A stretch of 64,000 bases of DNA from Alphaproteobacteria bacterium (GCA_021413445.1 JAIOQI010000056.1:5730-69729), one strand, 5' to 3'. Positions 18,384 through 56,870 are shown, numbered from the stretch's first letter. The notes: a model not told the origin generated them from the sequence alone. Program-made: numbers and translations.

Positions 18384-18540
18384 CCGGACTCCGTTGTTGA
18401 GCATCGACGAATTGTAGGGTAATCCATCAATTATGTAAAGGTTAAAATGGTTAATTTGATGATGTCACCAATCAATAACCTAGACAATGCGTTATTTTTC
18501 CTTATTTTGGGGGCGGTTGAATGAATCGATATTGATAATT

Positions 18541-19869
<1,329 letters not shown>

Positions 19870-19934
19870 TTATCCCGTACATCATCCCGGCTTCATGTGG
19901 GGGTTCAGATGCCTGCTCAAATTGGGCATGACGT

Positions 19935-20291: not shown

Positions 20292-20564
20292 GATGATCCT
20301 CCATTATCTTCATCATGTTATAGAAAACAAGTTAATAACTACTGAAGAATTTAAAAAATGCTTTAATATCTAGGGGCTAGTTTCATAAAATATTGCCATC
20401 CCGTCGAAGGGCGGGGTCTGGCCGCGCATGCAAGGCATGCGCCTTTATAAATCGCGGCAAAGCCTCGAGCCGGATGCCGCTCGTCAGCGGCATGGCGATG
20501 CATTTTAACGAGTCCGCCGCAACTCTTCATTGTTCGCACGGACAAAGCGCTTTAACATGAAGGC

Positions 20565-29300: not shown

Positions 29301-29428
29301 TCGAAGAGCTGACCAGCGGCACAAAAATCAAGACGGCCGCCGCTTTGACCGCGCCGGAAGCGCCGCCCCCCCCGGCCCCGCCACCGCCACCGCCACCGCC
29401 GGCTGCGCCGGCCAAGGCTGCAAGCTAG
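26369..29428 (+). CDS. icmB: IcmB/DotO (TraU)-type type IVB secretion ATPase with polyproline C-terminal tail
   Basis: About 1020 aa. The N-terminus MGILDGFFKPF...ESFIRLETSDDKTTFAAEDGSLVTLVRVDG resembles the remembered IcmB N-terminus. Walker A AQPGGGKSVLMN. Tail PEAPPPPAPPPPPPPPAAPAKAAS. Start taken at ATG 26369 (the ORF opens at TTG 26339). Confidence 0.75.
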   Translation: MGILDGFFKPFIKALRQPVESFIRLETSDDKTTFAAEDGSLVTLVRVDGSYQLIGDQEYKKIIEDSVIKFGTRFDKPGHAIQVYFVRNYDRIGEEVRRLLRPNQQAAKNIGLEIDDIFAERATHLSNYLAWEEIYFVLWTRPSILSKSDFAREAEGARKRRWIKALDAQYPFAAVEGLRTRQKSFSTAIITALKEMGLRAAEVEVHEAMRIIRANLFQGSMDSEWKPCLPGDPIPARSPEHATDLSELLWPPLRQQLASVSARVINDHIVEMGKYVWGGVDMVLGPQDPLPFPALLNRLSESKTPFRISFLIEGGGVQGMAMQSFLASVLAVTNAENKQVGDSLKGLAVMSRSEPIVKLRISFCTWAPKNNITLLEDRLSTLMQAAESWGYCQVSQLTGDPLDCVMSSALGIACASTAPPGIAPLYEMMKLLPWQRAASPFERGSILFRTPDGRVWPYQTGTNVTTTWFDLIFAQPGGGKSVLMNTLNLGTCLTAGMSSLPFVAVIDIGPSSAGLISLIKDALPPNRRHEAVSFRLQMNQQFAINPFDTKLGMRVPQVTERSFLVELLTLLCTPPGQSDPYDGISQLAGMVVDEMFRWRDDSIANAEPRPYLPRIDQAVDDALRKHEVTLPARAYWWDVVDILFDKDLTFEASLAQRYAMPTLGDAVSAARRPQIRNLLDETSIGASAEGVIHAFERMITSAVREFPILSSVTKFSLAENRICSLDLADVCPQGDATSDRQTAIMYMLARFALVTPWWINEEALAQMPAKYRSYHEARLRSFAETPKRLCYDEFHRTSSSKSVRGQIVRDVREGRKRGIQIVLSSQMLGDFSSDMVDLATGVWVLGTAISDSAVDATQKCFGLTDTARCIIRHKLTGPKAGGAPCLLILGTTDGKYEQHLINTLGPIELWAFSTTAEDVAIRSRLYALLGASAARRLLAVNFPGGSARSEIRRRVTMLSDKGVDPEKATVGAVTDQIVEELTSGTKIKTAAALTAPEAPPPPAPPPPPPPPAAPAKAAS

Positions 29429-29493: not shown

Positions 29494-30054
29494 ATGCCGG
29501 TTTCATATATTGTTCTAGCAATTATTGTTCTTCTTATTTTTGCCGTCGTGGTTATCTATAACGGACTGGTGAAGTTCAAGAACCTTGCGCTGGAGGGGTG
29601 GAGCGGGATCGATGTGCAGTTGAAGCGCCGCGCCGACCTTATCCCTAACCTGATTGAAACCGTGAAGGGCTATATGACGCACGAGCGGGGCGTGCTGGAG
29701 ACGGTAACGGAAATGCGCGCCGCCGCGATGAAAGCGACCGACCCGGCCGGCAAGGGCAAGGCGGAGGGGATGCTTTCCGGGGCGCTCGCCAATTTATTCG
29801 CCGTGGCGGAGAACTATCCGGATCTCAAGGCCAGCCAGAATTTCCAGGAACTCCAGAAGGCCCTTGCCGAGATTGAGGACCAGATCCAGCTTTCAAGACG
29901 CTATTACAACGGCGCGGCGCGCAATCTGAATATTCAGATCCAATCCTTTCCTAATAATTTGATCGCGGGGATGTTCCGGTTTCAGGAAATGAAATATTTC
30001 GAAATGGAAAACTCTGCGGACAGAAACGCGCCGCAAGTGGCTCTCCGGCCGTGA
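29494..30054 (+). CDS. lemA: LemA-family membrane protein
   Basis: 186 aa. N-terminal TM helix and a LemA pattern (YNGLV...RRADLIPNL...ENYPDLKA...RRYYN). Confidence 0.85.
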   Translation: MPVSYIVLAIIVLLIFAVVVIYNGLVKFKNLALEGWSGIDVQLKRRADLIPNLIETVKGYMTHERGVLETVTEMRAAAMKATDPAGKGKAEGMLSGALANLFAVAENYPDLKASQNFQELQKALAEIEDQIQLSRRYYNGAARNLNIQIQSFPNNLIAGMFRFQEMKYFEMENSADRNAPQVALRP

Positions 30055-31787
30055 ATGCGTTCAGGTTAGCCCTGGTTTTAGCCTTTCTATTGCTCATTCC
30101 GGCAACCCAGGCCTTGGCCGGAAGCGAAAAGATAATCAGCTTCAAAAGCTACATTACGATCAGGCCGGACTCGGTTGCGGAGGTGACTGAAACGATCGCT
30201 GTCATGGCGACCGGAGAGCAGATCAAGCACGGCATTTACCGCGACTTTCCGACGACCTATCGCGACAAGCTGGGAAATATTATCGAAGTGGGTTTTCGGG
30301 TAAAAAAAGTCCTGCGCGACAACCGGCAGATACCGTATAGCATTGAATCGCTCTCCAACGGAAAAAGGATTTACCTGGGCGACCCGCATGTCCTGATAGC
30401 GCCCGGCACGTATAGCTTTGTCCTCAACTATGAAGTTGACCGGGAACTGGGGTATTTCAGGGACTATGATGAGTTTTACTGGAACGTGACCGGCAACGGC
30501 TGGGTTTTTCCGATCGACCATGCCGAAGCGACAATCGAGATCCCCACCAACGCAAAGATACTCCAGCAATCCGGCTATACCGGCTATAGCGGTTCCACCA
30601 CGCGCGATTATGCCGTGACGGAGAACAGCGGCGATAAAATCACTTTTGCAACGACCCGGGGCTTAGGTCCGAAAGAAGGCCTGACGGTGGCAGTCGGCTG
30701 GCCGAAAGGCTTTGTCAAAGAGCCGTCCGCCCTTGATGGAATAATATTTCTTGTCAGGGACAATGCCGGTATCGCCTCGGGTCTGGGCGCTTTCTTCCTG
30801 CTGCTGATGTATTATACCGCCATCGTATGGAGGGTGAAAGCAAATGAGCCGCTAAAAACGGTTATACCCTTATTTGCCCCGCCCAAGGATATCCCGGTGG
30901 CCGCAGTGAGTTACATTTATCACAAGGGCATCGACGATAAAACGCTGCCAGCGACGATCATCAGCATGGCCGTCAGCGGGTATTTAAAAATTACGCAGCA
31001 AGAGGGCATAAGAAGTTTTTCCGGAATGGTGAATATACCGGGCCAGTTCCTGCTTGAGAAAAGCAAGTCTCCCGCCGTGCTGCCCGATATTGAAAAAATG
31101 ACCGGTGATGCGCTGTTCAGCGAAGGGGATGCCCTGGCCCTGAAGAAAAGCTATTGCGGGATTTTACAGCGCGCCATGCAGAAACTGACAGCAGGATTGC
31201 AGGCTGATTTCCGGGACGGTTATTTTTGCGATAACTCCCTGTTTATCAAAGGCGGGCTTGCCTTCACCCTATTGTCAGGCATCGTTGTCTTTGCCCCGGC
31301 GCATTGGGCGGTGACGCCATTACCCGCCATCATCATCGTGCTGACTTTTTTGCTGAACGGATTCTTCCGGCGGCGCGTAAAATCATATACCAGCCGGGGC
31401 AAGGATGTGGCGACGGAGATAGAGGGGTTCAAGATGTTTCTCTCCGTCACGGAGACAGAGCGCTTCAACCTGCTCAATCCGCCGGAGGTCACGCCCGAGC
31501 TGTTCGAGAAATATTTCCCTTATGCGGTCGCCTTGGGGGTTGAAAACAAGTGGGGCGATAAATTCAGCAGCCAGTTGATGGCGAGGGGCCGGGATCCGCA
31601 GAGCTACCATCCACGCTGGTACGGCAGCCCTCACCCCCTGTCTCTGAGCCAGTTATCGTCCAATCTTGGCAGCGGACTCTCCTCCGCCATTTCCTCATCT
31701 TCTTCGCCCCCTGGCAGGTCTTCCGGCAGCCGCGGCGGCGGCTCTTCCGGCCGCGGCGGAGGCGGTGGAGGCGGCGGGGGTTTTTAA
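30051..31787 (+). CDS. DUF2207-family membrane protein with Gly-rich tail
   Basis: 578 aa. Signal peptide, extracytoplasmic N-domain, several TM helices and a C-terminal SGSRGGGSSGRGGGGGGGGGF. GTG start overlaps the lemA stop. Confidence 0.7.
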   Translation: MNAFRLALVLAFLLLIPATQALAGSEKIISFKSYITIRPDSVAEVTETIAVMATGEQIKHGIYRDFPTTYRDKLGNIIEVGFRVKKVLRDNRQIPYSIESLSNGKRIYLGDPHVLIAPGTYSFVLNYEVDRELGYFRDYDEFYWNVTGNGWVFPIDHAEATIEIPTNAKILQQSGYTGYSGSTTRDYAVTENSGDKITFATTRGLGPKEGLTVAVGWPKGFVKEPSALDGIIFLVRDNAGIASGLGAFFLLLMYYTAIVWRVKANEPLKTVIPLFAPPKDIPVAAVSYIYHKGIDDKTLPATIISMAVSGYLKITQQEGIRSFSGMVNIPGQFLLEKSKSPAVLPDIEKMTGDALFSEGDALALKKSYCGILQRAMQKLTAGLQADFRDGYFCDNSLFIKGGLAFTLLSGIVVFAPAHWAVTPLPAIIIVLTFLLNGFFRRRVKSYTSRGKDVATEIEGFKMFLSVTETERFNLLNPPEVTPELFEKYFPYAVALGVENKWGDKFSSQLMARGRDPQSYHPRWYGSPHPLSLSQLSSNLGSGLSSAISSSSSPPGRSSGSRGGGSSGRGGGGGGGGGF

Positions 31788-31850
31788 TGCGGGATGCCTG
31801 CTTCTTTGCCCTTTCGACGCTGATAATTCCCGGCAGTCTTTACAAGCTAG

Positions 31851-31884
31851 AAAGAATATGTGTAGATAAAGAATATGTGCAGAT
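31851..31884. repeat. tandem 17-bp direct repeat upstream of the REC-EAL gene
   Basis: aaagaatatgtgtagat / aaagaatatgtgcagat (1 mismatch), followed by a related gaaatatgg. Candidate response-regulator binding site. Confidence 0.5.
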
Positions 31885-32013
31885 TTGAAATATGGATCTA
31901 TTACTCCGCGGATCGAATTAAAGAAATAAAGCAAGTATAAGAAATCAAAGAAAAATCTCCTGCGCGCATAGCTGCTGATCGATACGGGCAATATGTAAGG
32001 AAGAGGGGGAGGG

Positions 32014-33231
32014 GTGATGATCGCGAGCGGATTGAATTTTCTGGTGATAGATGATGATGACTTTCTGCAGCTGGCCACCAAAAATATGCTGCGTTCGTTT
32101 AATGCCGCCAAGATATTGGCGGCTCCCAATGGCATAAAAGCATTAGAGATACTGCAGGTGTCGAATGCTGAGCCGATAGATATAATCCTCTGCGACCTGA
32201 ATATGCCGGGGATGGACGGCATGGAGTTTCTCCGCCATTTGGGCGAGTCGCACTACGACGTCTCGGTCATTGTCGTCAGTTCGCATGACGATGCGCTGAT
32301 TGCCGCAGTCAAAAAGATGGCGCTGGCATACGGTATCAGGCTGTTGGGGTCCATACAGAAACCTATTTCACGGGCACAGCTTGAAGCCCTTATTTTGCAG
32401 CACAAATCCGCGCGGCCCAAGACGCCGCCCACGGCTGCCGCTGCGCCGGTCTTTACGCTTGAGGACATCTTGCGGGGCGTAGAGGAGCGGCTGTTCGAGC
32501 CCTTCTATCAGCCCAAGATAGAGTTTAAAACCGGGCTTATCAGCGGTGCGGAGGCGCTGGCCCGCTGGATTCATCCCCGGCATGGCGTCATCGCTCCCTA
32601 TGCCTTTATAAGGGCCCTTGAGACGAGCGGGAATATCGACGGGCTTACTTTCCTGATCCTGGAAAAAGCCTCCGCCGCCTGCCGCTTATTACACGATAAA
32701 GGCCATGCGATCCCCATTTCGGTCAATTTATCGCTGACATCGCTCAGCAACCCCGCGCTGGCGGACAAGATCACGCGGGTGGTGCGGAATGCGGGCATTG
32801 ACCCGCAGTATATCATTCTTGAAGTGACCGAATCTGCGACCATGACCAATGTCGCCCCCGCTTTGGAGAATCTGGCGCGTTTGCGCATGCACGGCTTTGG
32901 CCTGTCCATTGACGATTACGGCACGGGGTCTTCCAGCCTGCAGCAGATTACGCGCATCGCCTTCAGTGAACTGAAGATCGACCGGTCTTTCGTGAACGAT
33001 TGCTCCAACAACAGGGAGCTGTCTGTCGTCGTCAGGTCGAGTATCGAAATGGCGCACAAACTGAAAATCAAGTGCATCGCCGAGGGGGTGGAGACGCGGC
33101 AGGATTGGGAGACGCTGAAGGGGATGGACTGCGATACGGCGCAGGGCTATTTTATCGCCAAGCCGATGAACTTGGCGTCGTTCCTCGAGTTTTGCGCCGG
33201 ATATTCTCCGGAAGCTCTCCTTGCCCCTTGA
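32014..33231 (+). CDS. response regulator receiver + EAL domain (c-di-GMP phosphodiesterase)
   Basis: REC motif DIILCDLNMPGMDGMEF. EAL motifs EALARW, EVTES, DDYGTGSSSL and KIDRSFV. Confidence 0.85.
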   Translation: MMIASGLNFLVIDDDDFLQLATKNMLRSFNAAKILAAPNGIKALEILQVSNAEPIDIILCDLNMPGMDGMEFLRHLGESHYDVSVIVVSSHDDALIAAVKKMALAYGIRLLGSIQKPISRAQLEALILQHKSARPKTPPTAAAAPVFTLEDILRGVEERLFEPFYQPKIEFKTGLISGAEALARWIHPRHGVIAPYAFIRALETSGNIDGLTFLILEKASAACRLLHDKGHAIPISVNLSLTSLSNPALADKITRVVRNAGIDPQYIILEVTESATMTNVAPALENLARLRMHGFGLSIDDYGTGSSSLQQITRIAFSELKIDRSFVNDCSNNRELSVVVRSSIEMAHKLKIKCIAEGVETRQDWETLKGMDCDTAQGYFIAKPMNLASFLEFCAGYSPEALLAP

Positions 33232-33239
33232 GCCGGCCC

Positions 33240-35723
33240 CTACGTCTTGTCGCCGGACAAAGCGGCGAGGAGGCCGCTCTTGACTTCATCGTAGGCAGCC
33301 TGGATTTTATCCAAAACGGCCTGACGCTCTATAGCGGCAGCGTTCTCCATTTTCCGGGCCTGTTCACACAGGGCTCTCAACTTTTCAGCCTTGAGCGTGG
33401 CAGCGCCGCCTTTCAGCTTATGCGCGGCTTCGGCCCAGGCTTGGTTATAACCGTCGCTGCAATTTTCCCTGAGCTCATTCAGGTTTTCCTCGGTCTCCTG
33501 CGTGAATACCGTGACGAGTTTGCGCATGTCGGCCTCGTTATCGGCGAATTCCCTGAGCGCCGCAAGGCCGCCGGAAGGCGTACCCGCCGATACCGACGAT
33601 TTCTCCCCGGCGCCTGTATCGTCGTTTTCGCCTGGGAAAGTTATCCACCGGCTCATGATATGCCGCAATTCGTCCGGGTTAATCGGCTTGCTGATGTAGT
33701 CATCCATACCGGATAACAGGCACCGTTCCCGTGTTCCCGCCATGGCATCCGCCGTCATGGCGATGATCGGTATATGACGGCTGGTCCCTTTTTCCCCGGC
33801 GCGAATGCTATCGGTCGCCTCATATCCGCTCATCACGGGCATATGGCAGTCCATCAGGATCAGGTCATATGCCTTTTTACCCAGGGTATCTACAAGCATC
33901 TTGCCATTGTCGGCAATATCACAGTCCTTGAACCCCAGTTGAGGGAGCAGTCTTTTTATGTAGGCTTGGTTAAGCGGGTGATCCTCCCCCACCAGAATCT
34001 TGACATCTTCCGCTTTTCTTCTTTCTTCCGGAGGAAGCTGACGGGCGTTTTCGTATTGAAACAAGATCTTGTCTATTTCCGGCCTGACCTCGGATGTCGG
34101 GAAGGTAATGGTAAACCAGAAACGCGACCCTTTTCCGAAGGCGCTTTCAACACCTATTTTTCCGCCCATATTCTCGACCAGACGCTGGGCGATGCTCAGT
34201 CCCAGGCCTGTACCGCCATATCTGCGCGTGATTGAGGAATCCACCTGCGCGAATTCCTCAAAAATATTGTCCAGCTGGTCTTCTGGTATGCCAATCCCCG
34301 TGTCTGTTACGCTGCATTTCAGTATCATATGCTTCGGGTCGCCAGGATCAGGAAGGCATGAAATATCGATCACGACGGATCCTTTTTCTGTGTATTTTAT
34401 CGCATTTCCGACAAGATTGACCATGATGCGTCCCAACCGCATGGGGTCGCCAATAAGATAAGGCGGGTGATCTGCAGGAAAGTTGCATCTTAACGATAAG
34501 CCTTTCTGGTGGCATAGAGGCAGAAAGACTTCCATGACGTTGTTTACCACTTCCTCCAGCGCAAAAGTTACCTTCTCAAGCAGAAGAGCCTCTGCCTCGA
34601 TTTTTGATAAATCCAGAATATCGTTGACGATATTCAAGAGGTTGTTAGCGGCCCGGTATGCAATACCGATCATTTCTCTATGATCTTCTGCAACATTTTT
34701 GTCCTCGTAAATCATGCGGTTCAGGCCGATAATGCTGTTCAGCGGCGTCCTGAGTTCATGCGACATATTGGCGAGAAATTCTGATTTGACCTTACTGGCT
34801 TTTTCAGCGGCTTCTTTTTCTTTTTGCAGCCGCTCCTCCGCATAGAACCTCTTCTGGTCGGATTCTTCCATTAAGGCCGCACTCCACCAGATTAATACGG
34901 TAAAGAAAAAGATGTTAAGCAAAACAAAAAGCGACAGTTCCCTTATCTGGTCTAAGGCACCCGCACGCCGCGCAAGATATTCCAGCCAGAATAGGCCTGC
35001 TGGTATGATGATCGCCATGGGTAAAAGCCTGCGGGCCTGAACACCGCCTGCACCCGTGCCGCTTATAACGGCAATTATCCCACGGTCCGGGCGTGCGCAA
35101 AGAATGGCGGTGTTCACAAGAAAAAAGGCAACTGCAGTATTCAGGGCCATCGGGATATCAGTATATTTCATGTCGGACAGCATCATAAAACTGTAAGCAT
35201 AACTAATCATGGTCAGGAGCGCTATGAACCCGCTTCCCAAGGCTAAAAACTGGGCTGGCCAGAAACGGCCGACTTTAATATCAAGAAGCTGCAGGGAGAA
35301 ACTGACGAGAAGAAAGGTTACAGCAGTATTGAGTTCCATCCGATTAGGATAACCAGCGAACAATGCTGCCTGATTCAATTTATCCAGAAATAACATCTGC
35401 TCCGGGCCGCTGCCCCAAAGGAACAGGTCGCTGCAAAGACGCGTCAAAGCAATAATAAGAACTACATAGGCAGCGGCGCGGCCGAAAAGGCGCATGCCCC
35501 GGTTCTCCAGTTTGATTTGTTGCGCCAGAAGGGATATGCCTGTGAATAAAAAAGCCAGCGCCGTGCCGCTCGGATTCATTGCCGTCGCCCCGGTTTTTAG
35601 CGCAATGATATTAAATTCCCATCGCACAAACACGATGCAGCTTATAAGGATCAAGACAATGCTTGCTGCTTTCGCATAGTGCGAAAACCTGGTCAGCATA
35701 TATTGATGGTATAGTTGAGGCAC
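33240..35723 (-). CDS. hybrid sensor histidine kinase (multi-TM sensor, HisKA-HATPase, REC, HPt)
   Basis: 827 aa. H-box NMSHELRTPLNSIIG, REC DLILMDCHMPVMSGYE and HPt HKLKGGAATL. Confidence 0.85.
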   Translation of the reverse strand: MPQLYHQYMLTRFSHYAKAASIVLILISCIVFVRWEFNIIALKTGATAMNPSGTALAFLFTGISLLAQQIKLENRGMRLFGRAAAYVVLIIALTRLCSDLFLWGSGPEQMLFLDKLNQAALFAGYPNRMELNTAVTFLLVSFSLQLLDIKVGRFWPAQFLALGSGFIALLTMISYAYSFMMLSDMKYTDIPMALNTAVAFFLVNTAILCARPDRGIIAVISGTGAGGVQARRLLPMAIIIPAGLFWLEYLARRAGALDQIRELSLFVLLNIFFFTVLIWWSAALMEESDQKRFYAEERLQKEKEAAEKASKVKSEFLANMSHELRTPLNSIIGLNRMIYEDKNVAEDHREMIGIAYRAANNLLNIVNDILDLSKIEAEALLLEKVTFALEEVVNNVMEVFLPLCHQKGLSLRCNFPADHPPYLIGDPMRLGRIMVNLVGNAIKYTEKGSVVIDISCLPDPGDPKHMILKCSVTDTGIGIPEDQLDNIFEEFAQVDSSITRRYGGTGLGLSIAQRLVENMGGKIGVESAFGKGSRFWFTITFPTSEVRPEIDKILFQYENARQLPPEERRKAEDVKILVGEDHPLNQAYIKRLLPQLGFKDCDIADNGKMLVDTLGKKAYDLILMDCHMPVMSGYEATDSIRAGEKGTSRHIPIIAMTADAMAGTRERCLLSGMDDYISKPINPDELRHIMSRWITFPGENDDTGAGEKSSVSAGTPSGGLAALREFADNEADMRKLVTVFTQETEENLNELRENCSDGYNQAWAEAAHKLKGGAATLKAEKLRALCEQARKMENAAAIERQAVLDKIQAAYDEVKSGLLAALSGDKT

Positions 35724-35826
35724 GGCCTATCCCTGAATAAGATTCAAAATACAACGGTTGATTATACGAACACCATGATAAAGTACCAATGGGGAGTATT
35801 CAGTTGAAGGATTGAAGCGCAATAGC

Positions 35827-35877
35827 TTTCCATATGGGGTGGGTGACGGGTTTGAACCGCCGACCTTTGGTTTACAA
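35827..35877 (-). repeat. duplicated 3' half of tRNA-Thr plus flank (att-like direct repeat)
   Basis: tttccatatgg...gtgacgggtttgaaccgccgacctttggtttacaa matches 38928-38978 (27 nt identical in a row), then diverges exactly at the anticodon loop. Confidence 0.7.
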
Positions 35878-36209
35878 GGCGACTTGACATAGCATCGGCG
35901 AAGTTCGCTAGGTATCGTGAAGTATCGCTAGTCTCATGATCGGACTCGGTAATCTCGTCTCTTCCAGGTTCGTGGAGTTTCGGAGCGTTTCGCTGAAAAT
36001 CGGCCTTTTCGTTACCCCGGCGTTACCCTGAGATAGCGAGGATGCTGACGTGAAATTGAAGCCCTGATTCCCGTAGCGTTTTTTGAGTAAGGCATACTTG
36101 AAGGAATTCAAAAGTTACTCCCCATTTCTCTGTGAATTCATTTGGTTACTGTATTTAAACTGCGGTAGAGTTGTTTATCAGAACATAGAATGGCCAATCA
36201 GGGTGCGGC

Positions 36210-38897
36210 ATGACAAAACTCTCGACGTTGAAAAACAAACTGGTGGTGACCACGGCGCTGGCGGCGTCGTTGCTTGGCGGCTATGGCCGCAGGGCTTATG
36301 GCGCGTGTAGCGTCACGGTATCGCCGAGCTATTCGTGCAGCGGCGGCGCCAATATTACGACGCAAACCATCGCCGCTGATAATGCAGTTGTTTCTACGGT
36401 TGCAGGTTTCGGCGTCATCACCCCTTCCGGTAATGCCATTACCATCACCGGTGACGGCATCGGCACTGACGATGGCGCGCTCAGCTTTACGGATATTTTT
36501 TCTTCGACTATAACGGGAAAAAATAACGGCCTGTATATGAGGGTGAATGGAGACAATGGCGCCACACTTGGCTCTATAACGATCGATATAAACAGCACCA
36601 TCACCGGTCTAAGCACGTTAGGCACTGGTATCGATGCCCGCAACGCTGGCGGCAGCGGCGCGCTCACGATCACCGCCAATGGCGATACCACAGGAGGCAT
36701 TCGTGGAATCTATGCTTCCAATGCCAACAAAAGCACCGGCGCCCTCACCATCACCACGGGGGTGGGCAGCACAGTCACAGGTCTCGGCGTCGACAGCATC
36801 TCTGCCCGCAACAGCGGCAGCGGCGCGTTGTTGCTCAACATTGGGGGCGATGTTACAGGCTACGGCAACGGCATCAACTCCCGCAACTATGGCACCACTC
36901 TCACTGTTATCACAGGGACAGGCACAGAGGTTAGGGGCGCTTCTGCCCGCGGCATATATGCCCGCGACTTCGGTAGCGGTGCGCTCACAGTCACCGCTAA
37001 TGGCAATGTTACGGGTTATACTCACGGCATCTTTGCCCGCAACGCCAATGGCGGCAACCTCGTCATCACCACGGGGGCTGGCTCGGTCATTACGGGTACA
37101 AGCGCCGCAGGAATCTGGGCCCGTAACGACGGTCCCGGCTTGCTCTCGATCGACGTCGATGGTGATGTTACGGGCCACATCCACGGCATCTTTACCCGCA
37201 ACTACGGCGGCAGCGATCTGGCCATCACCAATCAGGCGGGCGGCGTCATTTCCGGCGCGACCGGCATACATGTCACGGGTGATGCCCTTGCCGGAGGCAG
37301 CATCGACAACAAAGGCACCATCAAGGGGCTCGATGGCACCGCAATCTTCCTGGAGGGCCTGTTGGACCCGATGGAGATCACGGCGGACGGCGGACGGATC
37401 ATTGGCGATGTGCAGGATGCCAATTATGCCTCCGGGTTTTCCACCGTAAAGGTCATCAACAATTTCACTACCGAGGGCAATTTCCTGGTCAGCGACCTGA
37501 CTGTTGACTCCGGCAAGATTTTCACCGTCAGCGCCGGAAACCAGATTATTCTGGATACCATGTCGAAAAGCGGCGGCGCGGACAATGCCGTGTTCAATAT
37601 CGGCGTCACAGATGACCTTACTTTCGGGAAGCTGGTGGTCACCAGCGATAACGTGGATTTGACTAAGGTCGATATCACCGTCAAGGTCACGCCCGTTGAC
37701 TCTTTATCCGATGGCGCTGCGATGCTGATTATGGATGGCGCCGCCCCCATCACCGGTGGCCCGGGCGGCACATTGACAGCCGTGGAAGACGACTCTCCGT
37801 TCTGGGATTTCTCCATTGTGGACGGAACTTTTGGGGATCTGGCGGGAGATAACTCCGATCTTTACCTGATTGCCGGCGCCGCCCTGTCTGATGATACTCT
37901 CGCTTCCCTGCTGCCGGGGGCTGACATCCCCGCACAGGCGTTGACCATGGATTTAACCACTCAGGGGTATGATATTGTCGAGGGGCAGATCAGTGCGCTG
38001 CGCTCCGGCGAAGAGATGAGCGGGATGTCGGCCGGGGTCTCGGCCAACGGGGTGAGCGCATGGCTGCAGACTTTCGGCCAGACCGCAAAACAGGATGAAC
38101 ACGGCGGCGTTGCCGGATATGACTCCGACACGCTGGGGGTTATGGCAGGCGCGGACTCCACCGACCTGATCAGTGACGGTGTGCTGGGTGTTTCCTTCAA
38201 CTACGGCAGGATCCATGCCGAATCCAAAAATATCAATACCACCGAAACTGACATCGACAGCTATGGCTTTATCCTTTATGGCAGCCGCAAGCTGGGCAGC
38301 GAGACGTTCATGGATGCCCAGCTCGGCTATGCCTGGAACGAGATCGGCAGCGAACGCCACGATGTCGGCGGTCCGGGCGCGACGGCGAGTGCCGATTACA
38401 GCAGCGGTCAGTATTCGGCGAAACTGCTCCTAGGCCGCGATTACCTCGCCGATAATCTGCCCGGAGCGGTGCTGACACCCACCGTTTCGGCTGCATATAC
38501 CCACCTGAAGACGGAGGGCTATACTGAAACCGGCGCCCCCGGCGCCCTTGCCGTTGGCAGCGAAAACTTCAACCTGCTCAAGCTGGGTATCGGCGCCAAT
38601 GCGGCGTGGAAACTGCAGAATACCGAAGGCAGCCTGATGAAGCCGATGATCCGCGCCGGTTATGCCTACAACGCCATCAACGACAAAGTCGAGACGACCG
38701 CCAGCTTCGCGGGCGATCCGTCCGGCACGACTTTCAGCGCCAGCGGCCCTTCCCCGGCCCGCAGCACCTTCAATGCCGGGGTCGGCCTGACCTATACCAC
38801 CGCCGCCAATTTCGACCTGTCGGCGAACTATGATTACGTCTTCAAAAGCGACTATCGCTCGCATGCCGGCGTCCTGCGCGCAACGGCGCATTTCTAG
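36210..38897 (+). CDS. autotransporter (type Va) with repetitive beta-helical passenger
   Basis: 895 aa. Signal peptide. At least 6 repeats of the type GSGALTITANGDVTG..GI.ARN. C-terminal beta-barrel ends in the aromatic ...LRATAHF. Confidence 0.85.
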   Translation: MTKLSTLKNKLVVTTALAASLLGGYGRRAYGACSVTVSPSYSCSGGANITTQTIAADNAVVSTVAGFGVITPSGNAITITGDGIGTDDGALSFTDIFSSTITGKNNGLYMRVNGDNGATLGSITIDINSTITGLSTLGTGIDARNAGGSGALTITANGDTTGGIRGIYASNANKSTGALTITTGVGSTVTGLGVDSISARNSGSGALLLNIGGDVTGYGNGINSRNYGTTLTVITGTGTEVRGASARGIYARDFGSGALTVTANGNVTGYTHGIFARNANGGNLVITTGAGSVITGTSAAGIWARNDGPGLLSIDVDGDVTGHIHGIFTRNYGGSDLAITNQAGGVISGATGIHVTGDALAGGSIDNKGTIKGLDGTAIFLEGLLDPMEITADGGRIIGDVQDANYASGFSTVKVINNFTTEGNFLVSDLTVDSGKIFTVSAGNQIILDTMSKSGGADNAVFNIGVTDDLTFGKLVVTSDNVDLTKVDITVKVTPVDSLSDGAAMLIMDGAAPITGGPGGTLTAVEDDSPFWDFSIVDGTFGDLAGDNSDLYLIAGAALSDDTLASLLPGADIPAQALTMDLTTQGYDIVEGQISALRSGEEMSGMSAGVSANGVSAWLQTFGQTAKQDEHGGVAGYDSDTLGVMAGADSTDLISDGVLGVSFNYGRIHAESKNINTTETDIDSYGFILYGSRKLGSETFMDAQLGYAWNEIGSERHDVGGPGATASADYSSGQYSAKLLLGRDYLADNLPGAVLTPTVSAAYTHLKTEGYTETGAPGALAVGSENFNLLKLGIGANAAWKLQNTEGSLMKPMIRAGYAYNAINDKVETTASFAGDPSGTTFSASGPSPARSTFNAGVGLTYTTAANFDLSANYDYVFKSDYRSHAGVLRATAHF

Positions 38898-38936: not shown

Positions 38937-39011
38937 TGGTGCCCGGTGACGGATTTGAACCGCCGACCTTTGGTTTACAAAACCACTGCACTACCGCTGT
39001 GCTAACCGGGC
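38937..39011 (-). tRNA. tRNA-Thr (anticodon UGU)
   Basis: 75 nt folded by hand: acceptor GCCCGGT/ACCGGGC, D-arm GCAC/GTGC, anticodon loop TTTGTAA, T-arm GGCGG-TTCAAAT-CCGTC, encoded CCA. Confidence 0.85.
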
Positions 39012-39114: not shown

Positions 39115-39123
39115 TGTTATAAT
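39115..39123 (+). promoter_or_regulatory. extended -10 promoter element (TGtTATAAT) upstream of dotM
   Basis: tgttataat lies 44 nt upstream of the GTG at 39167. Confidence 0.35.
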
Positions 39124-39166
39124 CAGGGTTAGGCTTTTTAATGCTTTAAACGAGGGTCGCCGCAGC

Positions 39167-40345
39167 GTGTCACAACCGCAAAAGAGTCCGCATGAAGATA
39201 TGATCCTGGCCGCCATCGTGTTTGGGCTGCTCTTCGTGATCGTGTGGGCGATCTGGCATTACTTTCACGCACAGCTGACGGACGCCCTGCGCTGGGTGCG
39301 GGTTGGCGAAATGTGGCTCGCGACATTGCTGGTCAAGAGCAACTATGCCGTGGTGGTGCCCAATGCCGGCACGCAGTCCATGCAGGTCTGGCGCGATTGG
39401 CTGCCGAAGGCCAATGTAGGCAATATCGGCATTCCTGAAATCATCGTCACCACTTACCTGGCGGTCCTGCCGCTGCGGCCTATTTTTGTCGGCCTGATCG
39501 GGGTCATGATGCTGTGGGCCATTTTATTCGGGCCCGGCACCAAGTATCGCCGCCGCATGAGCCTTGAAACCCTCATTCAGGAACAGGCGCGCTCTTTTCC
39601 GGCGATTGCGCCGTTTGTCAAATTCGACCCGCGCAAAATGCCCCACCGCGTGCTGGGCGGGGCGGTGCCCTCCAAGCTGCCGATGTTTTCCGAGGCCCTC
39701 TCTCCGGAAGAATGGATCGCCTTCCATGAAATCAAGGTCCAGAACAACCAGATCGACCTGAACCGCGCCCATCAGGCATTGGCGCTGCAATTGGGGAAAC
39801 GCTGGCAGGGCCCGCTCAAGCTGCCGATGCACGCGCAGGCCTTTTACGCGGCCTGCGCCTTGCGCCACGCACGCAAGCGCAAGGAATCCGAGGCTCTCCT
39901 GAACGAGTTGTCCTTGAACTGGACGCCGGACGGCGGGCTGAACCTTCCGTCAAATGTCAAAAGCCAGGTCCGGAGCATCATCAAGGACCCGAAACTGGGC
40001 GGTGCCTTGCAAAAATACGCCGACAAGCACGCCTTTGAAGCGACGGCGCTGCTGCGTTCCCTCGCGCGCGCGCGCGAGGAGGGCGGCGTCCTGGCGCCCG
40101 CTTCGTTCCTGTGGATGCGCGGGCAGGACCGCACGCTGTGGTACCCGATGAACAACCTGGGCCGGAAATCCTATCATCCGGAGGCCGTGGGCGCCCTTGT
40201 GCACTATACGAATGAACTGATCGCCGGGCAGAAGATCCCGACGCCGCGCTTTGACGACGTTATCAAGGGGTTTGAGGCTTTTTTACGCAGCCCGGGTGCG
40301 AGAACGATCCCGCCGCTTGACAAGACCGGCGGCGGCAAACGGTAA
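39167..40345 (+). CDS. dotM: DotM/IcmP (TrbA)-type T4BSS coupling-complex membrane protein
   Basis: 392 aa. N-terminal TM helices plus a ~240-aa cytoplasmic domain. The FLWMRGQDRTLWYPMNNLGRK block resembles remembered DotM. Lies immediately upstream of dotL, as in icmP-icmO. Start is GTG 39167 or ATG 39200. Confidence 0.65.
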   Translation: MSQPQKSPHEDMILAAIVFGLLFVIVWAIWHYFHAQLTDALRWVRVGEMWLATLLVKSNYAVVVPNAGTQSMQVWRDWLPKANVGNIGIPEIIVTTYLAVLPLRPIFVGLIGVMMLWAILFGPGTKYRRRMSLETLIQEQARSFPAIAPFVKFDPRKMPHRVLGGAVPSKLPMFSEALSPEEWIAFHEIKVQNNQIDLNRAHQALALQLGKRWQGPLKLPMHAQAFYAACALRHARKRKESEALLNELSLNWTPDGGLNLPSNVKSQVRSIIKDPKLGGALQKYADKHAFEATALLRSLARAREEGGVLAPASFLWMRGQDRTLWYPMNNLGRKSYHPEAVGALVHYTNELIAGQKIPTPRFDDVIKGFEAFLRSPGARTIPPLDKTGGGKR

Positions 40346-40366
40346 AAGAACCAGAGGGAGTAAGGG

Positions 40367-40780
40367 ATGTTTTTGTTTGCATTGACTTTGGCCATCGTGG
40401 CGGCTGTCCTGGTTTATTTTTTACCGGCGATGGTCGCGATTTCACGGAACCATCTGAACGCCATGGCGATATTCCTGACCAATTTGCTTTTGGGTTGGAC
40501 GGTTCTCGGCTGGGTTGTCGCTTTTATCTGGTCTTTCACAAATAACCCGCTCGCCGCCGCCGATAAGGATGAGCCGGCAATCAAGCTGTGGAAGTTCATA
40601 TTGCTGCTGCTGGTGTTTCTGGTGATGCCGGCATTGGTGGTGATCGGGATTAAAATCAAGCCGGCTAATCATGGTGACGCGACAAGCGCGCCGGTTTCAG
40701 CGCCGGCGCCGGCTGTCGCCCCGGCGCCGCCGGTAAAGATGGGCGTGCCGGTACCGGCGGATGAGTTGTTGGGCAAATAG
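40367..40780 (+). CDS. superinfection-immunity (Imm_superinfect)-like membrane protein with extra TM and Ala/Pro-rich tail
   Basis: 137 aa. The core YFLPAMVAISRNHLNAMAIFLTNLLLGWTVLGWVVAFIWSFTN matches the remembered family signature YFLP..A..R.H.N..AI...NLLLGWT..GW..A..W. Confidence 0.65.
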   Translation: MFLFALTLAIVAAVLVYFLPAMVAISRNHLNAMAIFLTNLLLGWTVLGWVVAFIWSFTNNPLAAADKDEPAIKLWKFILLLLVFLVMPALVVIGIKIKPANHGDATSAPVSAPAPAVAPAPPVKMGVPVPADELLGK

Positions 40781-40798
40781 GGGATAGGGTGGCATTCG

Positions 40799-43279
40799 GT
40801 GGCATTAGACTCTAAATTTGAGTATAAACATGCGGACATCCTCCGCGACGCCCGCCCGTGGCCCGCCCGCTTCGCGGATTCGGCCCGGGATTCTTCCACC
40901 GCGGCGATGGTTTTCGCCATGGGGGGGATCGCCGTCCTTACGGATCCGACCGTGGCCCTCCTGGCGGATCTGATTTTCTTTGTGATGTTCGTTTATTTCC
41001 TGTGGCTGTTAAAACAGAAAATGACGCTGCCATTCAAGCTGCCGAAATCCGCTGGCATCAAGGATAACAATTACAAGCGTCCGGACGGATCCTTCGGCAT
41101 GGCGGACGGCATTCTTTATCTCGGCAACGACAAGAAAACCGGCGAAGAAGTGTGGTTCACCAACAACGATGCGCGGACGCACTGCCTTTATCTCGGCACC
41201 ACCGGGTCGGGCAAGACCTTCGGCCTGAAGTCCTTTTCCTGCAACGCCCTGTGCTGGGCTTCCGGCTACATCTACATCGACGGCAAGGCCGACACCGATT
41301 TGTGGAGCACGCTCTCCGCCCAGGCGCGGCGTTTCGGCCGCGACGACGACATACTAATCATGAACTACATGACCGGCGGGGTCGGCGGGCAGGTGCCGTC
41401 GAATACCCTGAACCCGTTTTCGGCAGGCTCCGCCTCCTACCTCACCAACATGCTGGTGAGCCTGATGCCGGATTCCGAAGGCGATAACGCGATGTGGAAA
41501 GACCGCGCCGTCGCCCTGGTCAGCGCCATCATGCCCTGCCTGGTGTGGAAGCGCGACAAACAGAATCTGCCGCTCAACATCGGCACGGTGCGTACCTATC
41601 TTGTCTTCAAGGCGGTCATCAAGCTGTCGCGCGACCAGTTCGTTCCGGATCACCTGCGACGCGGCCTGCAAGGCTACCTTAATGAACTGCCCGGCTATGT
41701 CGATACCGCCTTTGACGATGAGGGCAACGAAAAGCCGCAGGCCGACGGCAGCATGCCGGATACCTCCACGCCGCGGCAGCAGCACGGTTACCTGTCGATG
41801 CAGTTCACGCGCGCCATGTCGTCGCTGGGGGACGATTACGGCTTTATCTTCGAAACGCCGGCGGCGGACGTCGATATGCTCGACGTGGTGCTCAACCGGC
41901 GCATCCTGATTGTGCTGATCCCCGCGCTGGAAAAATCCAGCGATGAAACGGCCAACCTCGGTAAAATTATTTCCTCGACCCTGAAGGGGATGATGGGCCA
42001 GACGCTCGGCAGCACGGTGGAGGGCGATTCGGCGACCGTCATCGAGAACAAGGTGACCACTTCCTCGACTCCGTTCATGGCGATCTTTGACGAGGTCGGC
42101 TACTACGTCGCGCAGGGTATGGCGGTGATGGCCGCCCAGGCCCGAAGCCTCGGGTTCTCCCTGGTCTTCGCCGCGCAGGATATGCCGGCGCTGGAAAAGC
42201 GCGTCAAGGAAGAAGCGCGATCCATCACGGCGAACTGTAACATCAAGCTGTTCGGCAAACTCGAGGATCCGACCTCCACCAAGGAATTCTTTGAAAAGAC
42301 CGTCGGCCAGGCGATGGTGACGGAAGTCTCCGGCTTCGAGCGCGACAAGGGCGGGGGTTCCGGTTATTCCAGTTCGCAGAACGCCAGCGTGCAGGTGCGC
42401 GCGCGCGCCAGCTATGAGCAGTTGAAGGGTTTTGTCGAGGGTCAGGCGGTCTGCGCTTTCGGCAAGAGCGTGAAGGAAATGCAGCTGTATAACTCCGACA
42501 TCGGGCACGCCAAGGCGATGCGCGTGCACCGCTTCCTGCCCGTGCCGCCGCCGTCCGGGGACGAGCTGATGAGCCTGCACCAGATCGACGACGTGCTGAC
42601 CCGCTTCCGCAACCCGCAGTGGAACCCGGAGCAGACGCCGCTGGCCGCCCATGCGGATATCAAGGCGATGGCGCATGGGTTTTCCGATGCCAAGAAGGCG
42701 AATTCAACGCTGCTTGAATGCGGGGCCCTGTCCGTGGCTGCCGTGGCCGAGGCGCATGGCACGATCAGCCCCGGTGATGTTTCCGAGGAGGCGCCGGCCG
42801 TCCCGGCAGCGCCGGAAGCGGGCATGACGGCGACGCGACCGGTATCCGCCGGACGCCGCGTTGCGCCGCCGGTGGAGGAAGCGGAAAAGGCTGCTGCTGC
42901 GGCTGTGGCCAAGGCCGGCGGCCCATTGAGCTGGAGCGAATTGATCGGCTCCGCCGAGGCATCGAAACTCGAAGCCCCGGGTGCGCCGCCGCTGCGGCGC
43001 GACCCGCCGGTGCTGGAATCGCCTGCGCCGGAATCGTCGGCGCCGCCGGTGGCGATGGCTGAGGAAGAGGCCGCATCACAGATCGGCGCGCCGATCAGCT
43101 GGGGGGATATTATCGGGATGGCCTCGGCCGAAGCGCCGGCAGCGCCGCCGCCGGCGGAGAAGAAGAAGGCGGCGCCGCCGCTTGAGGAAGAAGGGCCCCT
43201 GTTGCCGATCAGCTGGGCCGATGTGCTGGGCATGCCGCCCGGGGATAATTCTGGCGAGAATGCCGCAGGAGGTGGATGA
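40799..43279 (+). CDS. dotL: DotL/IcmO (TrbC)-type type IV coupling protein ATPase with long repeat-bearing tail
   Basis: 826 aa. N-terminus ...LRDARPWPARFADSARD..., TM helices, Walker A LGTTGSGKTFGLK and a ~200-aa Ala/Pro/Glu-rich C-terminal tail. Confidence 0.8.
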   Translation: MALDSKFEYKHADILRDARPWPARFADSARDSSTAAMVFAMGGIAVLTDPTVALLADLIFFVMFVYFLWLLKQKMTLPFKLPKSAGIKDNNYKRPDGSFGMADGILYLGNDKKTGEEVWFTNNDARTHCLYLGTTGSGKTFGLKSFSCNALCWASGYIYIDGKADTDLWSTLSAQARRFGRDDDILIMNYMTGGVGGQVPSNTLNPFSAGSASYLTNMLVSLMPDSEGDNAMWKDRAVALVSAIMPCLVWKRDKQNLPLNIGTVRTYLVFKAVIKLSRDQFVPDHLRRGLQGYLNELPGYVDTAFDDEGNEKPQADGSMPDTSTPRQQHGYLSMQFTRAMSSLGDDYGFIFETPAADVDMLDVVLNRRILIVLIPALEKSSDETANLGKIISSTLKGMMGQTLGSTVEGDSATVIENKVTTSSTPFMAIFDEVGYYVAQGMAVMAAQARSLGFSLVFAAQDMPALEKRVKEEARSITANCNIKLFGKLEDPTSTKEFFEKTVGQAMVTEVSGFERDKGGGSGYSSSQNASVQVRARASYEQLKGFVEGQAVCAFGKSVKEMQLYNSDIGHAKAMRVHRFLPVPPPSGDELMSLHQIDDVLTRFRNPQWNPEQTPLAAHADIKAMAHGFSDAKKANSTLLECGALSVAAVAEAHGTISPGDVSEEAPAVPAAPEAGMTATRPVSAGRRVAPPVEEAEKAAAAAVAKAGGPLSWSELIGSAEASKLEAPGAPPLRRDPPVLESPAPESSAPPVAMAEEEAASQIGAPISWGDIIGMASAEAPAAPPPAEKKKAAPPLEEEGPLLPISWADVLGMPPGDNSGENAAGGG

Positions 43280-43596
43280 TGGATGTATTACGGACCCTGA
43301 GCCGGATTTTTGTGGTGCTGACGCTGTTGCTGGCTTTATACGACCTCGTCTATCAGTGGGCCGTCAAGGCGCAGATGAAAATCCGCACGGTCCAGGAGAT
43401 GTGGACCGACGGCCTCGGCAAGGAGAGTTTCGAGGCGGGGGAAAAATCCCTCCAGTCCTTGCTGTCGCAGGAACATGTTCACTCCCTGATGCAAATGCCC
43501 ACGCCGGTCGTAACCGGCATCGCGGCGGTGTTCTTTTACGTTATTTACCGCGCCCTGTTGTTCGTGACCGGCAAGGACAAAAGCCAGAGAATTTAG
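43276..43596 (+). CDS. small two-TM membrane protein translationally coupled to dotL
   Basis: 106 aa. ATGA overlap with the dotL stop. Hydrophobic helices at both ends. No family recognised. Confidence 0.5.
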   Translation: MMDVLRTLSRIFVVLTLLLALYDLVYQWAVKAQMKIRTVQEMWTDGLGKESFEAGEKSLQSLLSQEHVHSLMQMPTPVVTGIAAVFFYVIYRALLFVTGKDKSQRI

Positions 43597-43608: not shown

Positions 43609-46819
<3,211 letters not shown>

Positions 46820-56410: not shown

Positions 56411-56870
56411 GCAGGAATTTTTGAAAAAATACGGCGGCATCTACGAACATTCGCCGTGGATCGCCGAAGCGGGTTTTGCGGCGGGGGCGGAAACGCTCGA
56501 TGACATCCATGCCGCGATGAAAGCCGCCGTCACCGCCGCCAGCCGCGACAAAAAACTGGCGCTGATCTGCGCCCACCCCGACCTCGCCTGCGCCGAACGG
56601 AACCTGACGGCGGAATCAACCTCCGAACAGCAGGGCGCGGGGCTGAAAGAGTGCTCACCGGAGGAATTCGCGGAATTTCAAAAGCTGAACGCCGAATACA
56701 AAAAGAAATTCGGCTTCCCTTTCATCATCGCCGTGAAAGGTCTCAACCGGATGGACATCCTGCAAGCCTTCCGCAGCCGCATCCACAACGATGCCGCCGC
56801 TGAGTTCGACACAGCGCTGGAGCAGATACACAGAATCTCTTTGTTTAGGTTGAGGGACTTATGCAAGTAA
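56400..56870 (+). CDS. uraD: OHCU decarboxylase
   Basis: 156 aa. Block YGGIYEHSPWIAE and ...AHPDL.... Confidence 0.85.
   Translation: MRDKQEFLKKYGGIYEHSPWIAEAGFAAGAETLDDIHAAMKAAVTAASRDKKLALICAHPDLACAERNLTAESTSEQQGAGLKECSPEEFAEFQKLNAEYKKKFGFPFIIAVKGLNRMDILQAFRSRIHNDAAAEFDTALEQIHRISLFRLRDLCK

Follow-up and report, generated by a model that had tools for sequence, protein, structure and literature searches.

A probable Dot/Icm-type coupling-complex operon in an uncultured Micavibrio-related alphaproteobacterium

The Dot/Icm machinery, a secretion system of type IVB (T4BSS), is regarded as the characteristic weapon of Gammaproteobacteria with an intracellular life such as Legionella, Coxiella and Piscirickettsia, and in reviews the T4BSS figures as a hallmark of deep-branching intracellular members of this class. 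What, then, is the role of a dotM-dotL gene pair in a 64,000-nucleotide (nt) stretch of alphaproteobacterial DNA (GCA_021413445.1, JAIOQI010000056.1:5730-69729; the whole stretch is called the window in the following)? An earlier note, made from the sequence alone, had proposed a dispersed and remodelled T4BSS. The present analysis reveals a bona fide DotM-DotL module in the alphaproteobacterial Micavibrio radiation, and the locus is likely to be the operon for the coupling complex of a Dot/Icm-type protein secretion system that is chromosomal and inherited vertically, in an uncultured Micavibrio-related alphaproteobacterium.

The module is a four-gene operon at positions 39167-43596, which comprises dotM/icmP, a gene for a 137-amino-acid (aa) protein with an Imm_superinfect domain, dotL/icmO and orf106, a gene for a 106-aa protein with two transmembrane (TM) helices, with intergenic gaps of 21, 18 and -4 nt. 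The four open reading frames (ORFs) lie exactly where the earlier note had placed them, with dotM upstream of dotL in the icmP-icmO order that it had reported. The DotM product matched Pfam DotM_C (PF23127) with 150.7 bits (cutoff 27), NCBIfam DotM_IcmP_IVB (NF033890) with an E-value of 4.6e-43 over profile positions 6-349 of 356, and the IcmP(DotM) chain 6sz9_B in the PDB with an E-value of 5.7e-19. DotL aligned with IcmO(DotL), chain 6sz9_A, over residues 3-659 with an E-value of 5.6e-140 (phmmer), matched the Pfam families TraG-D_C and TrwB_AAD_bind, and contains intact Walker A (GTTGSGKT, aa 133, nt 41195-41218) and Walker B (MAIFDE, aa 427) motifs.

A third T4BSS gene, icmB/dotO, lies about 10 kb away. 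Its ORF had no match in Pfam, NCBIfam or the PDB; the product is 68-97% identical to its 120 best matches, many of which are named IcmB by NCBI or JGI, and is among the most conserved proteins in this analysis. It aligned end to end with a plasmid DotO (30% identity over 1030 aa, E-value 4e-156, BLASTP), and its sequence contains the Walker A motif AQPGGGKS (aa 484) as well as a DEFH motif at about aa 802. ARAGORN also reported a 'tRNA-???' with a two-base anticodon within icmB (29146-29233), which is almost certainly a false positive. The comparisons with profiles, PDB structures and homologues thus uphold the earlier assignment of DotM, DotL and IcmB, with matches far beyond chance. Furthermore, the ratio of nonsynonymous to synonymous substitution rates (dN/dS) was 0.06-0.28 across all five T4BSS genes in comparison with the relatives L083 and L039 (homologous loci and contigs are cited by L numbers throughout), which indicates purifying selection; the values were 0.06 for icmB and 0.10 for dotM versus L083, 0.22 for dotL versus L039, 0.20 for the middle gene of the operon and 0.22 for orf106. 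Therefore, the five genes are real and constrained.

To which lineage does the operon belong? A scan with DotL, in which each GTDB species was represented by one genome, yielded 80 loci with 50-82% identity, nearly all labelled Micavibrio, Alphaproteobacteria, Rhodospirillaceae or Bdellovibrionales, the last being NCBI's outdated placement of Micavibrio; complete M. aeruginosavorus chromosomes were included. Micavibrio represents a deep branch of the Alphaproteobacteria made up of obligate epibiotic predators (PMC3189940), and the only cultured members of the radiation are such predators, which take their food from other bacteria to which they are attached. The alphaproteobacterial origin that had been read from the gene order was supported by these Micavibrio-like relatives and by the recurrence of the accD-folC and ahcY-kinase neighbourhoods in the gene list of Micavibrio ARL-13. 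The flanking housekeeping genes are likewise close (87-92% for NrdA), and the nearest sequence found is the JGI metagenome contig L083 (97% identity for IcmB, 93% for DotM). Judged by these similarities, the source is an uncultured member of the Micavibrio-related radiation.

When the ORFs of the 80 loci were clustered, a fixed unit emerged, in which dotM (found in 69 loci) is followed by a small ORF, by dotL (found in 79 loci) and often by orf106. A tRNA-Thr(TGT) gene is located divergently upstream of dotM in 18 of the 19 loci tested, including M. aeruginosavorus, and this neighbourhood is ancestral. In Micavibrio proper (L053/ARL-13 GMV_380-385, L037, L040, L042, L050, L075 and L078), the genes argS-gyrB-recF-dnaN-dnaA lie beside dotM-c2-dotL, c2 being the alternative middle gene described below, and begin within one or two ORFs after dotL where the ORF calls are complete. 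The genes behind the module in the sister clade are ankyrin-repeat genes, one that resembles alpha/beta hydrolase genes (recognized by eye), phoH and nrdAB; in the window, these genes are found at 1-6 kb. Recurrent gene clusters upstream of dotM in the relatives (c27, c19, c14, c28 and others) were considered as further dot/icm genes and rejected, as their N-terminal sequences look flagellar or housekeeping.

It should be noted that homologues of DotM and DotL, TrbA and TrbC, also serve in conjugation, and the module could be what is left of a conjugative element of the IncI/IncL-M type, or a part of one (an integrative and conjugative element or an integrated plasmid), at tRNA-Thr, with TrbA/TrbC acting in DNA transfer. 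The best NCBIfam match of the large protein is indeed TrbC_conju, homologues occur in 3942 plasmid records, most of them conjugative, and the module abuts a tRNA gene with a partial copy 3 kb away. The placement of DotL relative to the IncI proteins was checked with a neighbour-joining tree of 657 trimmed columns, in which 16 proteins of the lineage were combined with IncI, IncL/M, Legionella, Bosea and Yersinia sequences. The 16 lineage proteins grouped together (100/100) and fell into two subclades, one for Micavibrio proper and one for the window's side, and the IncI and IncL/M TrbC proteins formed a separate clade (100/100); the Legionella, Bosea and Yersinia sequences could not be placed in a firm order (Bosea-Micavibrio bootstrap 50/100). 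In the trimmed alignment, the identity of the window DotL to Legionella DotL was 41.6%; it was 40.1% to a type IV coupling protein (T4CP) of a Bosea megaplasmid and 32.8% to a Yersinia plasmid T4CP, in contrast to 25.1-28.2% for TrbC. DotL is, therefore, not a member of the IncI group.

The gene content of the window points in the same direction. In the IncI reference layout (L085), trbA-trbB-trbC-nikB are contiguous, whereas no relaxase, TrbB or pil gene was found among the scanned ORFs of the window (most of those of at least 80 aa, compared with Pfam and NCBIfam), and the claimed lack of relaxase and conjugation genes therefore stands; in addition, no relaxase was present among the called genes of L081-L095. 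The GC content of the module (0.611) is close to that of the flanking core genes, the tRNA-Thr-dotM junction is retained in 18 of 19 relatives, the module of Micavibrio proper sits beside the dnaA region, and DotN is present in the lineage, which is where it was looked for. The idea that the tRNA-Thr gene marks an island carrying the dot module had to be abandoned in view of the conserved junction; moreover, the partial tRNA copy, 43 nt long and 3.1 kb from the intact gene, brackets together with it only an 895-aa autotransporter gene (36210-38897) and not the dot genes, which suggests that the autotransporter segment might be a small integrase-less insertion at the tRNA. Taken together, the reading as an IncI-type element is largely refuted, and we regard it as very improbable. 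The outcomes that the earlier note had named as fatal to its proposal, that is, grouping with IncI TrbA/TrbC and a linked relaxase cluster, a genome of the Legionellales, or profile searches that do not favour DotM and DotL, were not observed.

If the module belongs to a secretion system, where is the rest of it? A tblastn search of the window with the icm-cluster proteins of a relative detected icmB and nothing else, and the Pfam and NCBIfam scans of most of its ORFs likewise yielded no further dot/icm gene, in agreement with the claim that icmB is the only other T4BSS gene in the window. In the relatives L081, L082, L090 and L094/95, icmB ends a cluster that comprises IcmL/DotI-family genes (one or two copies), DotH/IcmK, a TrbI-type DotG/IcmE, TraP/DotF-like, TraQ/DotE-like and small DotP-like genes and DotN/IcmJ, and the cluster has the order icmM-L-K-E-G-C-D-J-B of region II of Legionella. 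One of the IcmL/DotI-family genes scored 192.8 bits (cutoff 175), and DotN scored 97 bits (E-value 1e-27), with 1582 homologue matches that NCBI names DotN. One metagenome-assembled genome (MAG) holds both L081 and L007 and another one holds both L090 and L015; the dotM-dotL module and the icm cluster are therefore unlinked within a genome. In the subclade of the window (the window, L083, L039 and L088/L089), icmB is preceded by degP-miaA and is located 4-10 kb upstream of tRNA-Thr-dotM, and a second, independent orphan icmB occurs in L093. The proposed dispersal of the system was thus supported, with icmL...icmJ-icmB at a separate locus in the relatives and icmB split off in the window's subclade.

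Genes with ankyrin repeats and DUF6782 genes often flank the icm cluster of the relatives. Near this cluster, L081 also contains (17048-20386) several paralogues that share a C-terminal domain of about 90 aa (...FNF.A[RQ]RVNE[IV]F...GG.P), and the DUF6782 and ankyrin genes are repeated in L081, L082 and L094. The paralogues, the DUF6782 proteins and the ankyrin proteins are plausible T4BSS substrate families; none of the three families near the icm cluster has a homologue in the window.

The separation of icmB from its cluster could also mean that the T4BSS channel has disappeared, or is disappearing, from the subclade, in which case icmB, dotM and dotL would persist as relics or have taken on another function, for example, that of a stand-alone translocase or of a regulator. 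Such a history would fit with the icmB detached from icmL...icmJ (the window, L083, L039, L088/L089 and, independently, L093), with the mobile or variable DNA between icmB and dotM, with the swapped N-terminal domain of the middle gene, and with an in-frame stop in ahcY that hints at gene decay or a sequence error. However, the five genes are intact and have retained their catalytic motifs, the low dN/dS values of icmB and dotM were obtained against the 97%-similar L083, and IcmB is strongly conserved across its best matches. The dot/icm genes of Legionella are themselves encoded in two regions. Dispersal of secretion genes is by itself no sign of loss; the type II secretion system of Legionella is encoded in five loci (PMC4793230). 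We therefore consider it improbable that the locus is such a relic.

Several observations have nevertheless to be weighed against a functional Dot/Icm-type system. The 64-kb window holds just three T4BSS genes (dotM, dotL and icmB), DotA, B, C, D, H, G, I and N were not seen in it, and the tearing of icmB from its cluster could reflect decay. DotA, DotB, DotC, DotD, IcmT, IcmX and IcmS/W were not recognized at the relatives' loci, no whole-genome search for DotA-D having been made. With 147.7 bits, DotM remains below the NCBIfam equivalog cutoff of 230, and the best NCBIfam match of DotL, TrbC_conju, has 378.8 bits and is likewise below its cutoff of 800. Apart from one arginine, the residues that contact the Glu-rich signal in Legionella DotM are unconserved (K/H/A in place of R217, D in place of R196, T/A in place of R315 and a variable residue at R197), and the DotL tail has no similarity to the IcmSW/LvgA-binding region of Legionella DotL(656-783). 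Because these contacts are mostly unconserved and this tail is absent, the substrate choice cannot be transferred from Legionella.

From its scores, DotM is a divergent member of its family. The residue equivalent to Legionella R314 is invariant in all 69 family members, and the cytoplasmic domain is net basic (36 K+R vs 22 D+E). Meir et al. reportedly noted that, among the residues for the Glu-rich signal, only R314 is widely conserved, with which the conservation of R314 alone is consistent. In Legionella, DotL(656-783) binds IcmSW-LvgA (PMC7251119). According to reviews, however, T4CP tails vary widely, so the missing tail bears on the Legionella-type adaptor mechanism and not on membership among the T4CPs. 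In place of this region, the window DotL has a tail with three P[LI]SWx[DE]hhG motifs (nt 42923-42949, 43091-43117 and 43205-43231), two of which are matched by a repeat at the DNA level (D5); in Micavibrio proper, the tail contains PMSFF and a single [LI][SN]W[ED][ED]L[VI] motif.

Lineage-specific features are also found in the two small membrane proteins of the operon. The 137-aa protein matched Pfam Imm_superinfect (PF14373) with 64.3 bits (cutoff 27.9) over the full 42-residue two-TM profile, which corresponds to its first two helices; in the context of this operon, a role in superinfection immunity is not implied. In 66 other loci, the middle position is occupied by c2, a protein of about 183 aa that has a soluble domain at the N-terminus, a single TM helix and a linker, while the Imm_superinfect form (c24) was found in the window and in five to seven other loci. 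The two forms are alignable only over the last 23 residues or so (hhalign probability 95%), which share the peptide ...G[VE]P[VMI][SP]AD[DEQ][FL][LF]..., and their N-termini are unrelated. In condensed form, GVPxPADxLF/LG closes the middle protein in every case. Because the close relative L039 retains the c2 form, the N-terminal swap seems to be recent or patchy. The c2 family profile found nothing better than an E-value of 0.44 in the PDB and no link to IcmS, IcmW, LvgA or DotY/Z; c2 and orf106 had no match in Pfam, nor had orf106 in NCBIfam or the PDB. Searched with a hidden Markov model, the orf106 family was detected in 23 loci, none of which lies outside the window's side of the tree. Both small proteins might be lineage-specific accessory subunits, and the tail motifs of DotL and the C-terminal motif of the middle protein might dock on a common partner.

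The following mechanism for a Dot/Icm-type system in this bacterium can be proposed. DotL would be the hexameric ATPase of the inner membrane, which would recruit the substrates and power their entry into the T4BSS channel, and DotM, anchored in the membrane and with a net basic cytoplasmic domain, would bind DotL and be part of the substrate-docking surface, the two small membrane proteins serving as accessory subunits specific to this lineage. DotN, encoded beside icmB in the relatives, and DotO/IcmB, encoded 10 kb upstream in the window, would complete the cytoplasmic machinery, and the envelope-spanning part (DotI/J, DotH, DotG, DotF, DotE/P and others) would be encoded elsewhere in the genome, which would thus possess a full machine for the translocation of protein rather than DNA. 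The Legionella-type DotL tail would be replaced by a disordered Ala/Pro tail with P[LI]SWx[DE]hhG motifs, so that the recognition of substrates or adaptors would differ from that in Legionella.

What would be the target of such a system? One version of the proposal, which differs with respect to the target only, is that a functional T4BSS is aimed at eukaryotic cells (protists) and that the clade of the window is host-associated. The Dot/Icm type is known only from bacteria that interact with eukaryotes and from conjugative plasmids (PMC11338181); in addition, ankyrin-repeat genes are found beside icmB (L081, L082, L092 and L094) and in cluster c20 beside dotL (L007, L012 and L018), and the window encodes an EpmA-ankyrin fusion and two Lcl_C (DUF1566) proteins. 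However, these hints of an interaction with eukaryotes are circumstantial: ankyrin repeats are not exclusive to effectors that target eukaryotes, no effector has been validated, and both the IcmS/IcmW/LvgA-binding tail and the E-block-binding patch are lacking. An association with eukaryotes is not known for any cultured member of the radiation, and Micavibrio proper, which has the same dotM-x-dotL arrangement, preys on Gram-negative bacteria. The ankyrin genes near the T4BSS loci of the window's clade point towards eukaryotic targets and the predatory cultured sister clade points towards bacterial ones, and we regard a eukaryotic target as possible but doubtful.

A wider proposal, which is made here tentatively and as a speculation, is that the T4BSS is a core, order-wide, contact-dependent device for the injection of proteins by the predators of the Micavibrio radiation, directed at Gram-negative prey and possibly at protists in the ankyrin-rich sister clade, in which short motifs (P[LI]SWx[DE]hhG and GVPxPADxLF) replace IcmSW/LvgA. 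If this were true, it would be the first type IVB system for which an action on bacterial cells is demonstrated, and the statement of 2011 that Micavibrio lacks a type IV secretion system (T4SS) would be overturned. Activity in predation would extend T4BSS biology from eukaryotic hosts to bacteria and would provide a testable candidate for the mechanism of 'leeching'; activity towards protists would mark an unrecognized host-associated group of Alphaproteobacteria.

The 2011 statement stands in the main text of the ARL-13 genome paper, which reported no evidence for a T4SS (PMC3189940). The expression table of the same paper (Additional file 4) nevertheless lists GMV_383 as 'icmO', beside hypothetical genes of 582 bp and 1215 bp and argS/gyrB. 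The GEI values given there for attack and attachment phase are 4.3/3.5 for icmO, 2.3/3.7 for the c2 gene, 1.7/3.0 for dotM, 1.2/2.8 for gyrB and 0.2/1.3 for argS, and most housekeeping genes have a GEI near zero in the attack phase (PMC3189940). GMV_1708, the sole hypothetical gene of about 3 kb in the rows of the table, which extend to GMV_2037, was considered as a candidate for the icmB of ARL-13, but its neighbours are unlike the icm pattern. Needham et al. (2022) report MacSyFinder hits for pT4SSi, the protein-secreting T4BSS, in seven marine Micavibrionales in one sentence (PMC9418006), and the system was analysed neither there nor in the ARL-13 paper (PMC3189940). A review of contact-dependent predation from 2025 does not link Micavibrio to a T4SS, and among the papers listed for Micavibrio together with icmB, dotL, T4BSS or type IVB, none mentions Micavibrio. 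The pipelines of NCBI and JGI already name IcmB, DotN and IcmJ in Micavibrio-like MAGs. The novelty that the earlier note had implied is limited, and some features of the coupling complex are variant; the presence of the system in this order had been recorded in these gene names, in the 'icmO' of ARL-13 and by Needham et al.; it is recorded but was never studied. One lesson for annotation is that icmB/dotO and the small subunits escape the Pfam and NCBIfam models, and detectors that rely on co-localization can miss the system because it is split over several loci.

The positions of the features discussed are compiled in Table 1.

Table 1. Positions in the window of the operon, icmB and the features between and around them
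Feature	Position	Strand	Remarks
icmB/dotO, VirB4-class T4BSS ATPase	26369-29428	+	ORF of 1029 aa from TTG 26339, homologues start at ATG 26369
Variable cargo between icmB and tRNA-Thr	29494-38897	.	lemA, DUF2207, EAL response regulator, hybrid histidine kinase, autotransporter (Pfam); not T4BSS
Copy of the 3' half of tRNA-Thr(TGT), 43 nt	35842-35884	-	repeat D3, 91% identical to 38945-38987; att-site-like
tRNA-Thr(TGT)	38937-39011	-	ARAGORN; divergent from dotM
Candidate operon promoter TGTTATAAT	39115-39123	+	extended -10-like; 44 nt upstream of the dotM GTG start; read by eye
dotM/icmP	39167-40345	+	392 aa; GTG start, alternative ATG at 39200; TM region aa 12-30 and about 92-121, then cytoplasmic DotM_C
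137-aa three-TM protein	40367-40780	+	N-terminal Imm_superinfect aa 16-57, Ala/Pro linker, C-terminal peptide GVPVPADELLGK (nt 40742-40777)
dotL/icmO, type IV coupling ATPase	40799-43279	+	826 aa; TM helices aa 37-70; NTPase/all-alpha domain to about aa 659
DotL C-terminal tail, aa 660-826	42776-43276	+	Ala/Pro/Glu-rich; alignment to 6sz9_A stops at about residue 659
orf106, 106-aa two-TM hairpin	43276-43596	+	4-nt overlap (ATGA) of its start with the dotL stop

A simple scan for sigma-70 promoters found nothing above the expectation from shuffled sequences, and the candidate promoter of the operon, TGTTATAAT, was not flagged because it has no match to a -35 element. On the other side of the operon, the convergent gene for a copper P-type ATPase (copA, 43609-45795) begins 12 nt past orf106. 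The flanks are as had been described: the tRNA-Thr(TGT) gene, copA and genes of purine catabolism (adenosine deaminase, xanthine dehydrogenase, urate oxidase and others). The GC content of the interval 29494-35723, within the variable cargo, is 0.528 compared with 0.579 for the window. In close relatives, the stretch between icmB and tRNA-Thr has other contents: L083 encodes a two-component system and an IS3 transposase, and L039 has a shorter, differently composed region. Upstream of the EAL response-regulator gene in the window, a tandem 17-nt direct repeat, AAAGAATATGTGTAGAT / AAAGAATATGTGCAGAT, occupies the intergenic positions 31851-31884 and may be a regulator binding site.

Some further features of the window were recorded. 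The ahcY gene (18487-19869) contains an in-frame TAG at 19489-19491 (...NIGHFDS*IQIE...), and the gene of L083 is intact (442 aa); Glu is presumably the residue expected at this position, from the conserved HFDxE motif of the enzyme family, and the TAG represents a nonsense mutation or an error in sequencing. The ORF 59549-61114 encodes an N-terminal EpmA/GenX domain (lysine aminoacylase of elongation factor P, TIGR00462, 364 bits) fused to about 200 residues of ankyrin repeats; a partial match in L039 suggests that the fusion may be conserved in the subclade. The two Lcl_C (DUF1566) proteins (23327-23734 and 61558-61980) score just under and just over the Pfam cutoff, respectively; Lcl_C is the C-terminal domain of the Legionella collagen-like adhesin. 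A 219-aa ORF (16991-17650) with a weak match to eCIS_core (DUF4157; 23.8 bits, cutoff 22) may be one of the 'secreted HExxH' proteins of the earlier note, and three consecutive ORFs of 229-240 aa on the minus strand (9406-11676), which have no family matches, are probably its 'Inc-like' proteins.

An ORF of 357 aa within the purine/allantoin cluster (56861-57934) has a third-position GC content of 0.28 versus about 0.75-0.8 for its neighbours and no match in Pfam or NCBIfam; it is probably foreign. A similarly AT-rich ORF (3152-3547) lies between nrdA and nrdB. Adjoining this complete class Ia nrdA-nrdB pair, an 855-aa ORF (6378-8945) resembles B12-dependent ribonucleotide reductases far below the NCBIfam cutoff (561 bits, cutoff 1737, model positions 282-939 of 1222) and may be a truncated or divergent NrdJ.

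How does the locus compare with known systems? The IncI1/IncL-M plasmids (pN581, L085) share homologous TrbA/DotM and TrbC/DotL proteins and the MPF_I ancestry with it. However, they have a DsbC-like trbB between trbA and trbC and an adjacent nikB, neither of which is present in the window, and the module of the window is chromosomal, core and vertically inherited. The X-T4SS of the Xanthomonadales, which injects toxic effectors into bacteria on contact (cited in PMC12428579), offers a functional analogy only: it is a type IVA (VirB/D4) system without homology in the DotM, DotN and DotO components, and its effectors carry XVIPCD signals, whereas the window holds no evidence of toxin-immunity pairs. 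The closest match in the plasmid collection is the T4CP of the megaplasmid pBSY19_1 of Bosea sp. RAC05 (39-40% identity over about 640 residues), from which it appears that DotL-type T4CPs occur in other Alphaproteobacteria; in contrast to the window, the Bosea gene is located on a 709-kb plasmid, has toprim and hypothetical neighbours and lacks a neighbour annotated as DotM.

The Dot/Icm system of Legionella pneumophila (DotL-DotM-DotN-IcmSW-LvgA-DotY/Z; PDB 6SZ9/7OVB) has much in common with that of the window: dotM immediately 5' of dotL, a DotL that has the Walker A/B motifs and a pair of TM helices at its N-terminus, a DotM with the TM-plus-DotM_C architecture and R314, and, in the relatives of the window, DotN adjoining IcmB in the icmM-L-K-E-G-C-D-J-B order. 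The window differs in its alphaproteobacterial host, in the extra small membrane genes between dotM and dotL and after dotL, in a DotL tail with SW motifs instead of the IcmSW/LvgA-binding region, in the unconserved R196/R197, R217 and R315 contacts of its lineage, and in the unlinking of dotM-dotL from the icmL-icmB cluster. IcmS, IcmW, LvgA, IcmQ/R and DotY/Z did not turn up, a proper search for them not being possible. M. aeruginosavorus has a DotL of the same clade that is 57% identical and the same tRNA-Thr-dotM-x-dotL arrangement. The window belongs to the sister subclade and differs from M. aeruginosavorus by an Imm_superinfect rather than a c2 N-terminus of the middle gene, by the presence of orf106, by three SW motifs instead of one, and by an icmB that has been relocated to the neighbourhood of the module.

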